This document shows, one piece after another, positions 60,059 through 61,972 of a stretch of 64,000 nt of DNA. The notes beneath the pieces were generated by a model that worked only from the letters and a program-made list of their open reading frames with translations, did not search any database and was not told the DNA's origin. Source of the stretch: Pseudomonadota bacterium. Its GTDB lineage: Bacteria; Pseudomonadota; Gammaproteobacteria; UBA1113. The DNA lies in contig JAJXUV010000001.1 in assembly GCA_021782495.1 (NCBI GenBank), positions 374,637-438,636 on the forward strand, read 5' to 3'. The translations under genes were made by a program, and so were the position numbers. The stretch's first letter is position 1. Each line of letters begins with the position of its first letter.

Positions 60059-60248
60059 ACCCAGCCATAGTTATATGCTATAATTCACAAAAATTATATG
60101 CAAAATATAAGTTTTTGATATTTAATAAATTCTTTATAAGTTAATTAATTTTTATATATTTAACTATATAAATATATCTAAAACTTGACAAATTTAGTTA
60201 TAAATATATAATTAAAAATATGTAAATTTAGTTATATATAGGTGAATT

Positions 60249-60701
60249 TTGAAAAATAAACTTTTAGTTGTAAGGCAGCTTGATCGCCAGCTTTTAGCCA
60301 TTAAAGAAAGTGGGGTAGCATTGGTTCCTAAAGAAGGATGGATGAAAACGATAAGAAAAGCTTTAGGCATGACGATTAAACAGTTAGCCAAACGACTTGG
60401 TACTAATCCTTCAAGGGTAGTGCGTATGGAAAAAGCGGAAATAGAAGGCGCTATAACTTTACGTACATTAAGAACTGTGGCCAAACAGCTGGATTGTTTT
60501 TTTGTATACAGTTTTATTCCTAGGTCAAGTTTAGAAAAAAAAATAAAGGATCGAGCAAAAGAGATAGTCATTGAACAAATAAAAAGAACATCTCATACAA
60601 TGTATTTAGAAGCACAATCTGTTGAGACAGATTGGCTAGACGCACAAATAGAAGACTTAACGGGTGAATTATTAGCAAAAAATTGGAAACATTTATGGTA
60701 G
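60249..60701 (+). CDS. Mobile mystery protein A (XRE-family HTH antitoxin-like partner of Fic)
   Basis: 150 aa. HTH segment RKALGMTIKQLAKRLGTNPSRVVRMEKAEIEGAITLRTL. It lies immediately upstream of, and overlaps, the Fic gene region. It is preceded by a ~190-bp extremely AT-rich junction. Confidence 0.7.
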   Translation: MKNKLLVVRQLDRQLLAIKESGVALVPKEGWMKTIRKALGMTIKQLAKRLGTNPSRVVRMEKAEIEGAITLRTLRTVAKQLDCFFVYSFIPRSSLEKKIKDRAKEIVIEQIKRTSHTMYLEAQSVETDWLDAQIEDLTGELLAKNWKHLW

Positions 60702-60753
60702 ATTTTTCTTATGCAGAAGCGCAACTCCATTAGATCCTGATGAAGCGGAAGGA

Positions 60754-61284
60754 TTGTTGCCAGAACACATCACTACTCAGGGCCCGCTTAACGAATGGGA
60801 GCAAATGAATATCCTCGAGGCCGAAGAATGGGTTAATTCTCTTAATTTAGCATCGACTGAAATATTATCTATGGATTTTATAAAAAAACTACATAGAAAG
60901 ATGTTTTATAAAACTTGGATTTGGGCGGGTAATTTTAGAAAAACTGATAAAAATATTGGGACGCATTGGCCAAATGTTGCAGTTGAAACAAAAATTTTAA
61001 TGGATGATGTCAAGTATCAAGTGAATCATAATACTTACTCAAATCTTGAGTTAGCAGTAAGATTTCACCACAGACTAGTTGCAATTCATCCATTTCCCAA
61101 TGGAAATGGGCGGCATGCTCGTATGATGACAGATATTTTCTTATTATCACAAGGAGATAAAAGATTTTCATGGGGTAGTCAAAGCTTAGTAAAAGAATCG
61201 CCTGTGCGAAAAGAATATATAAAATCATTGCAAGGAGCAGATAAAGGGAATTGTGATTTATTGCTGAGATTTGTTGAATCATAA
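60754..61284 (+). CDS. Fic-family protein (mobile mystery protein B). Putative AMPylating toxin-like enzyme.
   Basis: Fic motif HPFPNGNGRHARMM at about 61090-61130. The conserved N-terminal ...ATPLDPDEAEGLLPEHITT is encoded in-frame upstream of the TTG at 60754, but no in-frame start is available. An ATG at 60696 lies in the -1 frame (MVDFSYAEAQLH then stop). Confidence 0.8.
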   Translation: MLPEHITTQGPLNEWEQMNILEAEEWVNSLNLASTEILSMDFIKKLHRKMFYKTWIWAGNFRKTDKNIGTHWPNVAVETKILMDDVKYQVNHNTYSNLELAVRFHHRLVAIHPFPNGNGRHARMMTDIFLLSQGDKRFSWGSQSLVKESPVRKEYIKSLQGADKGNCDLLLRFVES

Positions 61285-61378
61285 AGATTTTAAGGAGAAT
61301 AGCGATACTCCTGGTTTTTCCTAGGCGTCTTTTTCTTCAAAAGAGTTCATTGTCTATTTTAATATATATACAGGTGCT

Positions 61379-61888
61379 TTGTGTATTGAGGCGCCTAATA
61401 TCTTGTATATGAGTAAAGATCCACTGTATGGGGAAAATCCAACGTATATGGAGTCACTTAAAGCTTGCCTTTCATCAACGCAGTTTAATAAGGGGCGTAT
61501 AGGATTTCCGAATTTTTTTATACCTTTTCAAACGAGAAACGCGCATGCTGCCAAGATGATAGAAGCAAATACATTTGAAGAGATAAGAGCAATAGCACCG
61601 GAAGCGCTTCAGAGCGAACCCCGCCTTGGAAGAAATCCGTTTGTTAGAGAATGTTATGAAATAATGGGCAATAGTTCTTCAGCGCTGGAAGCTGTGCGCA
61701 ATTTATCAGAAGGCTCTCCTGGAACCGAGGAAATATTAGGCGAAAACACTCATCGAAAATATGCAGATTATTGTCCTCCTTTTCTTAATGAATATTTCAA
61801 TAAGTTCGTGGAAAATTTTGGTGGCAGATATGAGTGTGGATTGCCTCCTTTACCAGAAGAGAATCCGGGCAATCACAAAAGGATATAG
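61379..61888 (+). CDS. Hypothetical protein
   Basis: 169 aa with no recognisable motifs. It sits between the Fic module and rpmF, where yceD normally lies, but it is not YceD-like. The likely start is the ATG at 61409. Confidence 0.4.
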   Translation: MCIEAPNILYMSKDPLYGENPTYMESLKACLSSTQFNKGRIGFPNFFIPFQTRNAHAAKMIEANTFEEIRAIAPEALQSEPRLGRNPFVRECYEIMGNSSSALEAVRNLSEGSPGTEEILGENTHRKYADYCPPFLNEYFNKFVENFGGRYECGLPPLPEENPGNHKRI

Positions 61889-61972
61889 CCTTCTTAAGTG
61901 TTTAAAGAGATTTTCTGCGAATATTTCTGTAAGTATTTGATAAATAAAGATTTTTTACAAAAATATAAAAAA

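Follow-up and report, generated by a model that had tools for sequence, protein, structure and literature searches.

Does the Fic gene that stands between a bioC-like gene and rpmF in this gammaproteobacterial DNA still encode a working enzyme, and how did it come to lie there? The stretch analyzed, called the window throughout, is 64,000 nucleotides (nt) long. Its initial annotation had recognized a pair of mobile mystery proteins, a helix-turn-helix (HTH) protein A followed by a Fic protein B, and had placed the conserved Fic N-terminus upstream of the first in-frame start, TTG 60754. Both observations held, the pair being confirmed by profile scores of 184 bits for A (TIGR02612) and 249 bits for B (TIGR02613). 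Whether B had suffered a 1-bp deletion, undergoes slippage, or is a genuinely shortened Fic had been left as a choice of three; the single-column alignment gap and five further assemblies described below identify a deletion, while the lack of a slippery heptamer speaks against slippage. We consider it likely that, in a horizontally acquired A/B cassette resembling toxin-antitoxin (TA) modules, the window holds an intact regulator next to a Fic gene that has recently become a pseudogene or been strongly attenuated. The coordinates of the features are collected in Table 1.

The open Fic reading frame spans 60676 to 61284. Its translation matched TIGR02613 at 248.7 bits (cut-off, 124.4) over profile positions 1 to 185 of 186, the match beginning exactly at A16 of the open-frame translation, that is, at nucleotide 60721, and it matched the Pfam Fic profile PF02661 at 55.9 bits (gathering threshold, 24), so that B belongs to both TIGR02613 and the Fic/DOC family by score. 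What the gene does not form is a complete open reading frame (ORF) of 192 to 210 amino acids (aa) that joins a start codon to the F-x-Y-x-x-G-A-T-P-L-D-P-D-E segment. Because its ATG is parted from the gene body by a 1-bp deletion, B of the window is a disrupted TIGR02613 member. The closest homologue, P0002 (locus L008), comes from another uncultured bacterium; it is 82% identical and 196 aa long and begins MVDLSYSEGATPLDPNEAEGLLP. In the DNA alignment, TCAGAAGGCGCAACTCC of L008 stands against GCAGAA-GCGCAACTCC of the window, with GAA-GCG in place of GAAGGCG. The initial annotation had proposed that one G inserted after gaag would restore the Fic frame, and the repaired frame indeed reads MVDFSYAEGATPL…, a residue-for-residue match to MVDLSYSEGATPL… of intact P0002; the tetranucleotide itself lies at 60716 to 60719, not at 60717 to 60720. 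Likewise, the nearest ATG had rightly been described as out of frame and opens a 12-codon dead end, but it begins at 60695 rather than 60696. This ATG (60695 to 60697) overlaps the stop codon TAG of A (60699 to 60701), and the same ATGGTAG overlap is present in the intact L008. A search with the repaired protein returned at least 7,978 homologues at E ≤ 1e-10 among the best 8,000 candidates scored, whereas the database gene calls from the window locus give a 175-aa product (P0001).

The window belongs to contig JAKBFC010000001.1 of a metagenome-assembled genome (MAG), GCA_021837795.1. No assembly error is more frequent than an indel of one base, and the true genome could thus read GAAGGCG and carry an intact Fic gene. 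An identical 80-nt stretch, however, was found in five further, independently assembled contigs (SRR13178630, SRR13162838, ERZ27236874, ERZ27233572, and ERZ27236866), with 0 to 1 mismatches over kilobases, and since these contigs come from different runs, an assembly error is very unlikely. In addition, the deleted base lies in a GG dinucleotide and not in a long homopolymer, all protein-database gene calls give the 175-aa form, and no intact allele of more than 82% identity was present among 5.8 billion proteins. We therefore hold an artefact of sequencing or assembly to be extremely improbable.

An intact protein could also arise from the sequence as it stands, by programmed −1 ribosomal frameshifting or transcriptional slippage that yields a low, regulatory level of full-length Fic. 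The −1 frame is open from 60676, a slip anywhere in 60695 to 60731 would rejoin the Fic frame, a run of five T residues lies at 60703 to 60707, and the homologous gene of Coxiella burnetii (see below) would likewise need a −1 shift. However, no X XXY YYZ heptamer occurs in 60695 to 60733, the RNA that follows folds less stably than its shuffled versions (z = +1.5), and frameshifting at the T run would exchange Y6 and G9, both conserved, for other residues. Moreover, L008 simply has the extra G, all 84 other family members compared have the full-length frame (192 to 210 aa) and appear to need no shift, and the window and C. burnetii genes are broken at different, nonhomologous sites. On the missing heptamer and the weak downstream RNA, we rejected programmed frameshifting, to which we give scarcely any credence.

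What did the deletion cost the protein? We compared B across 84 homologous loci, drawn from metagenomes and viral contigs and including the two closest homologues. Counted from the recovered starts, the B products have 192 to 210 aa in all 84 loci, none being shorter than 192. Within the first 21 residues, T11 is present in 84/84, P12 in 83/84, and G9, E17, and L21 each in 81/84 (≥96%), a level near that of the catalytic motif. The 175- or 176-aa product of TTG 60754 or TTG 60757 lacks all five of these residues. In an AlphaFold2 (AF2) model of P0002 (predicted local distance difference test score [pLDDT], 89.4; predicted template modeling score, 0.87), residues 1 to 20 have a pLDDT of 58 to 77 and the first long helix starts at residue 29. 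Given that this helix lies behind the low-confidence residues 1 to 20, the Fic core of a truncated product could still fold; the element that was removed is conserved and probably depends on an interaction.

The age of the lesion was approached through substitution patterns. Relative to L008, the ratio of nonsynonymous to synonymous substitution rates (dN/dS) amounts to 0.14 in B and 0.12 in A. When amino acid changes in B were polarized with L009, 13 fell on the window branch and 9 on the L008 branch, with no significant excess, and rare substitutions numbered 6 in the window and 7 in the intact L008; accelerated decay of the window B was thus undetectable. The Fic frame is still open for 189 codons. 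With the frame open, dN/dS low, and no excess of changes, the deletion in B looks recent.

The initial annotation had allowed that the enzyme could be functional from the downstream start, which now appears doubtful in view of the near-invariant residues lost and the absence of any homologue so short among the 84. In its fullest form, this explanation has ribosomes re-initiate after the 12-codon leader at TTG 60754 or TTG 60757 and make a functional, possibly less toxic Fic of 175 or 176 aa, the deletion being attenuating and selected. The frame is indeed intact for 176 codons with the catalytic motif in place, and the core helices of the model all lie from residue 29 on, past the truncation point; against this stand the loss of G9, T11, P12, E17, and L21 and the lower limit of 192 aa in the family. 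A GGAAGGA sequence occurs just 5' of the TTG codons, but at 0 to 3 nt from this Shine-Dalgarno-like sequence they would be poor initiation sites. The low dN/dS also speaks for a truncated enzyme, although it would mostly reflect time before the deletion, and the window branch is slightly the more changed, three of its changes being to proline. Further support comes from C. burnetii, in which an independently 5'-frameshifted but otherwise open B is kept in three plasmid types; a transposon mutant of the A gene in that organism, if viable, would argue that the truncated B is no strong toxin. Overall, we regard a functional truncated Fic as unlikely.

The parallel in C. burnetii deserves description. 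The best plasmid matches were QpH1, QpDG, and QpDV of this species, where CBUA0001 corresponds to A and CBUA0003 to B (56% identical). The families, order, and orientation are those of the window, the HTH gene directly preceding the Fic gene. The C. burnetii B gene (L175:540-700 for QpH1; L176 and L177) carries a 1-nt deletion, GGATTGAT-CCAGG, at codon 22, which is common to the three plasmids and puts the N-terminal VFEYAEGATPLDPDEASGLI segment out of frame with the rest, while the remainder of the frame and its HPFxNGNGRHAR motif stay open; RefSeq starts the protein at differing downstream codons, giving 153, 159, and 178 aa. In contrast to the window, where codon 9 is hit, the deletion is thus an independent one, and the C. 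burnetii pair lies on a plasmid beside base 1 of the record rather than in a chromosomal slot between a bioC-like gene and rpmF. One study, citing Martinez et al. 2014, records the isolation of transposon mutants in cbuA0001 and cbuA0003 (PMC10098735). The cbuA0001 mutant, if viable, would be consistent with a nonlethal B. The two independent 5'-proximal deletions fit a common fate of toxin genes, and selected attenuation still has room. Pressed further, they could mean that loss of the B N-terminus through a 5'-proximal 1-nt deletion, here at codon 9 and in the ancestor of the C. burnetii plasmids at codon 22, is a recurrent, selected taming of the Fic enzyme. We rate this as decidedly improbable. 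Were it true, the G-x-T-P…E…L segment would be a determinant of toxicity, target recognition, or A binding, and a low level of the truncated, no longer coupled enzyme would be retained for a new, nontoxic role with the HTH partner as its regulator.

Several observations weigh against reading B as a dead or strongly attenuated toxin gene in a TA-like cassette. A truncated enzyme that still functions would account equally well for the length of the open frame, the undamaged catalytic motif, and the low dN/dS, and the retention of a similarly disrupted B across three C. burnetii plasmid types means that the truncated form could be selected. The five other assemblies apparently represent two related accession sets, so that the allele is real but fixation throughout the species is not implied. 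Profile searches with the C-terminal domain of A against PDB detected no homologue among VbhA and the other Fic antitoxins (hhalign to VbhA, probability 0.7%). Finally, the family is functionally uncharacterized, its name was met in the literature only incidentally, in four papers, and both the toxicity of B and its neutralization by A are putative. With these points taken into account, the reading we favor is still that the Fic gene has recently been pseudogenised or strongly attenuated. For annotation, the 175-aa "Fic" protein P0001 of the databases is best taken as what is left of a protein of 196 aa, and the pseudogene call is clean and well supported.

We then considered the partner and the DNA in front of it. 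A belongs to TIGR02612, scoring above the curated cut-off and being encoded directly upstream of B; it contains an XRE-type HTH domain (PF01381) and has a weak MqsA-family match. A stands directly upstream of B in 79 of the 84 homologous loci. At the commonest A-B offsets, the chosen B start (ATG in 63/69) overlaps the A stop or lies within a few nt of it, and judged by sequence this arrangement is the geometry of translationally coupled TA operons. Across 71 A proteins, the M, L, E, and Q of the M-x-L-E-x-Q motif are each present in 71/71, and S or T occupies position −4 in 55/71; the residue after the invariant Glu is G or N in 15/71. An AF2 model of A computed without an alignment was uninformative (pLDDT 62.7, with the motif region below 50).

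The roughly 190-bp stretch 5' of A (60059 to 60248), pointed out in the initial annotation for its richness in A+T, is at 85.3% A+T the extreme of the window. The TATA/TAAAT periodicity ascribed to it did not hold as described, and the repeat structure proved to be a 34-nt direct repeat: Tandem Repeats Finder reported a period of 34 in 2.4 copies at 60158 to 60240, and the 12-mer AAATTTAGTTAT is present in two exact copies spaced by 34 nt. The repeats bracket the −35 to +1 region, and the sequence from about 60150 onward, promoter and repeats included, is conserved in the L008 module. Such repeats recur in the family. A 12-nt direct repeat spaced 31 to 35 nt apart was present in the 120 nt 5' of A in 42/65 modules, compared with 52/1300 shuffles (4%), and the mean GC content of these 120 nt in the 65 modules was 0.29, versus 0.48 in coding DNA. 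In the same 65 loci (L008 to L171), the spacing of the repeats is nearly constant at 32 to 34 nt, often with a GCTATA-like core, in hosts of about 30 to 65% G+C. No Rfam match to a structured RNA was obtained in the AT-rich region. We read this stretch as the cassette's own promoter together with candidate operators to which the HTH protein A would bind.

From these features and the model, we propose the following working of the module. The consensus sigma-70 promoter would drive A and B as a single operon, and A would bind the direct repeats that bracket it, two or three in number at a spacing of about 33 nt, thereby repressing its own operon. B would be translated by coupling, its ATG overlapping the stop of A in the geometry seen in the intact homologue. 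The product would be a small Fic enzyme with a predicted fold closest to the class I FicT/VbhT toxins and with no inhibitory motif in cis. A probably neutralizes B through its C-terminal domain, in which the invariant Glu of the [S/T]-M-x-L-E-x-Q motif may act. In the window, ribosomes that start at ATG 60695 would stop after 12 codons and make no full-length B; at most, a poorly initiated product of 175 or 176 aa would come from TTG 60754 or TTG 60757. With A and the promoter intact, a regulator would thus be left whose toxin-like partner is dead or strongly attenuated. The mobile mystery family is uncharacterized but widespread (>7,900 homologues at E ≤ 1e-10; B homologues on 253 plasmids), and it now has a testable outline: an HTH partner with M-x-L-E-x-Q, direct repeats at a spacing of about 33 nt, an invariant Asn in the Fic motif, a FicT-like predicted fold, and a near-invariant G-x-T-P segment at the N-terminus, which is lost in both of the independent natural frameshifts.

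Table 1. Features of the A/B cassette and its surroundings, in window positions
Feature	Position	Strand	Evidence or remark
BioC-related methyltransferase gene (left flank)	59249..60058	+	TIGR02072 BioC 116 bits, under the cut-off of 185
Variable cargo interval, bioC-like gene to conserved rpmF promoter (A/B cassette and ORF169)	60049..62046		Junction alignments with L172
AT-rich promoter/operator region of the cassette	60059..60248	+	85.3% A+T, most AT-rich 190 nt of the 64-kb window
Sigma-70 promoter TTGACA-16-TATAAT of the A-B operon	60185..60212	+	12/12 consensus matches
Direct repeat 1, putative operator	60187..60206	+	Overlaps −35 hexamer and spacer; repeat family D7
Direct repeat 2, putative operator	60221..60240	+	Between −10 hexamer and Shine-Dalgarno sequence; repeat family D7
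Mobile mystery protein A, intact XRE-type HTH regulator, putative antitoxin; TTG start	60249..60701	+	TIGR02612 184.1 bits (cut-off 122.6), Pfam HTH_3
A residues 117-123 TMYLEAQ, M-x-L-E-x-Q motif with S/T at −4	60597..60617	+	Column counts, 71 A proteins
Residual 5' end of Fic gene: ancestral ATG, now 12-codon ORF ending TAG	60695..60733	+	Translation MVDFSYAEAQLH, then stop
1-bp deletion site, between GAAG and C, ancestrally GAA GGC (Gly9 codon)	60716..60720	+	Single-column gap versus L008 and C. burnetii sequences
Body of B (Fic), residues 10-196	60721..61284	+	TIGR02613 249 bits, PF02661; first in-frame starts TTG 60754, 60757
Fic motif HPFPNGNGRHAR	61087..61122	+	Equals family consensus; Asn at motif position 5 invariant, 84/84
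Terminator-like hairpin after Fic stop	61310..61325	+	L008 homology ends just before
ORF169, near-orphan gene (159 aa from ATG 61409 by gene callers)	61379..61888	+	No Pfam, NCBIfam, or PADLOC match
Two terminator-like hairpin copies ATACCATC…GATGGTATTTT, insulating cargo from rpmF	61969..62027		Repeats D5, I2
rpmF promoter TTGACA-17-TAGAAT (right flank)	62055..62083	+	Kept in all relatives; synteny resumes here
rpmF (ribosomal protein L32)	62124..62321	+	PF01783, TIGR01031

How the cassette reached this position is indicated by comparison with related genomes. Locally, three minus-strand genes (accC, accB, and aroQ) come first, and after them the BioC-related methyltransferase gene, the AT-rich spacer, A, B, ORF169, rpmF, plsX, and fabH. 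A scan of GTDB genomes with the bioC-like protein found no relative, after which a PlsX scan and a protein-database search were used to find relatives. By PlsX, the nearest are Gammaproteobacteria MAGs of 85, 84, 84, and 74% identity (L010 to L013), all others being at ≤59%. The protein search added L172, whose bioC-like protein is 80% identical. In L172, accB-aroQ-bioC-like and rpmF are kept, and a 1069-aa minus-strand gene lies between them (L172:2505-5714), the product of which matches no Pfam profile and resembles nothing in the window. Homology between the window and L172 ends at about 60048, the last ~10 nt (three codons) of the bioC-like gene being divergent, and restarts at about 62047, just 5' of the rpmF promoter. 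This promoter is the sole conserved upstream block among the PlsX-defined relatives, of which L010 to L012 have a major facilitator superfamily (MFS) transporter gene and a minus-strand VapBC pair upstream of rpmF and L013 has a hydrolase gene there. The insertion between the bioC-like gene and rpmF that the initial annotation had proposed was therefore upheld by synteny, the relatives carrying other cargo.

Composition and distribution point the same way. GC content at third codon positions is 0.26 in A and B, versus 0.44 in the bioC-like gene and 0.42 in plsX; the closest modules have other neighbors, an rlmE-like gene in L008 and crcB in L009; and a B homologue occurs on 253 plasmids. A phage origin was rejected: none of 50,697 phage records matched, and of 2.9 million viral contigs only 2 did. 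An integration site of the tRNA or integrase type was rejected as well, since no tRNA was found and no target-site duplication was evident in the repeat list. Together, these data support the A/B cassette being a horizontally acquired insertion in a variable slot and not ancestral at the locus.

The block had been said to occupy the place of yceD. That gene does precede rpmF in 71/80 gammaproteobacterial loci, but it was found neither in the slot of L010 to L013 or L172 nor anywhere in the 64-kb window, where a tblastn search with an approximate E. coli YceD sequence gave no match. As yceD is gone from the slot in all five relatives, its loss predates the cassette and was not a displacement by it. 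In this uncultured gammaproteobacterial lineage, the DNA in front of rpmF has thus lost yceD and serves as a landing site for small cassettes.

Other peculiarities of the neighborhood were recorded. The VapB/VapC (PIN) pair lies on the minus strand directly 5' of the rpmF promoter (L010:1612-2177, L011:3770-4416, and the same position in L012); the VapC ORF has 111 aa in L010 versus 138 aa in L011 and may be another decaying toxin in this slot. The bioC-like methyltransferase gene adjoins accB/accC and is not in a bio operon; its protein belongs to a small clade of close relatives with 53 to 80% identity, some of them labeled malonyl-CoA O-methyltransferase by the Joint Genome Institute. One independent contig, L003 (ENA ERZ27236874, k141_1063627), carries exactly the window sequence from position 60061 on, through rpmF, plsX, and fabH. 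Its left flank differs, consisting of the N-terminus of a PotC-like ATP-binding cassette permease gene on the minus strand joined at the common CCAGCCATA. When L003:1-232 is set against window 59830 to 60060, the alternative junction falls at 60060/60061, the left edge of the AT-rich region; it is either a real rearrangement or the product of a chimeric contig. Near-perfect palindromes of about 120 to 140 nt fill the rpmF-plsX (62331 to 62471) and plsX-fabH (63510 to 63630) spacers; the hairpins predicted for them have energies of −77 and −59 kcal/mol, and the second palindrome has a 75%-identical copy at 2383 to 2548. Since the rpmF-plsX spacer is only ~20 to 35 nt in relatives, the palindromes look like genome-specific insertions resembling miniature inverted-repeat transposable elements or repetitive extragenic palindromes. 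Further away, at 51570 to 55832, the window encodes a 1420-aa protein of unusual architecture, in which Pfam matches combine UvrD-type helicase/AAA domains with Sel1/TPR repeats.

The gene that follows B had been noted as an orphan of 169 aa, and it is present as described (61379 to 61888), although gene callers shorten it to 159 aa. Its grouping with the A/B block was refuted: 0/84 homologous loci carry a relative, and we rejected ORF169 as a part of the module. The hairpin after the Fic stop, the end of L008 homology there, and the absence from 84 modules make it a separate unit. A divergent YceD was rejected too, as neither DUF177 nor any other Pfam profile matched. A word-index search of 5.8 billion proteins returned only ORF169 itself, while full HMMER over 1.8 billion representatives gave three credible remote relatives (P0122, P0123, and P0125) and two spurious repeat proteins. 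ORF169 (61409 to 61885) and the three share a region of about 60 residues, …TFEEIR.IA.EAL…P.LGR…V…Y…L.NSSSA…, which constitutes a very rare domain; in two of the three, it forms the C-terminus of a larger protein (322 and 394 aa).

How does the module compare with known systems? Foldseek with the AF2 model of P0002 against PDB placed the VbhT-VbhA complex first (template modeling score, 0.71 to 0.75), followed by FICD, EcFicT/EcFicA, and Fic-1/AntF. All of these but FICD are class I Fic toxins, which receive their inhibitory helix from an antitoxin encoded as a protein of its own, with (S/T)xxxE(G/N) as the inhibitory motif (PMC10628234, PMC7479194). Like VbhT/VbhA, EcFicT/EcFicA, and Fic-1/AntF, the module has a small single-domain Fic gene right after a small partner gene, B combines a FicT-like fold with the lack of a cis inhibitory helix, and A has its invariant Glu with S/T at −4 in most members. 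The pattern [ST]xxxE[GN] gave 11 scattered matches in the 84 B sequences, without positional conservation and none in the window. Unlike the ~60-aa helical antitoxins of class I, the partner here is a 150-aa HTH protein; the strict motif occurs in 7/71 A proteins, the window A (TMYLEA) not among them, and profile searches did not support its C-terminal domain as a homologue of VbhA/FicA. By PADLOC, B matched PDC-S04 (74 bits) and SoFic (53 bits) via the Fic domain and A matched a generic HTH model only, without a system-level call. The canonical active-site motif of AMPylating Fic proteins is HxFx(D/E)GNGRxxR (PMC7479194). The active-site motif of the window, HPFPNGNGRHAR, which the initial annotation rightly called intact and which equals the family consensus, departs from it in having Asn for Asp/Glu at position 5, as do all 84 homologues. 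Although it thus stands outside the class as defined by its partner, the A/B module may, on the predicted fold, work like a class I Fic TA system. With type II TA systems regulated by XRE-HTH antitoxins (HigA/MqsA-like), it shares the XRE-type HTH, repeated operator-like sites over the promoter, and a B start compatible with coupling; in contrast to those systems, the toxin is a Fic-fold enzyme rather than an RNase, and the putative operators are direct repeats ~33 nt apart, not palindromes. The VapBC pairs of L010 to L012 resemble the cassette as small TA-type units directly upstream of the conserved rpmF promoter, whereas they belong to an unrelated family (PIN toxin), lie on the opposite strand, and have an MFS transporter gene as their left neighbor.

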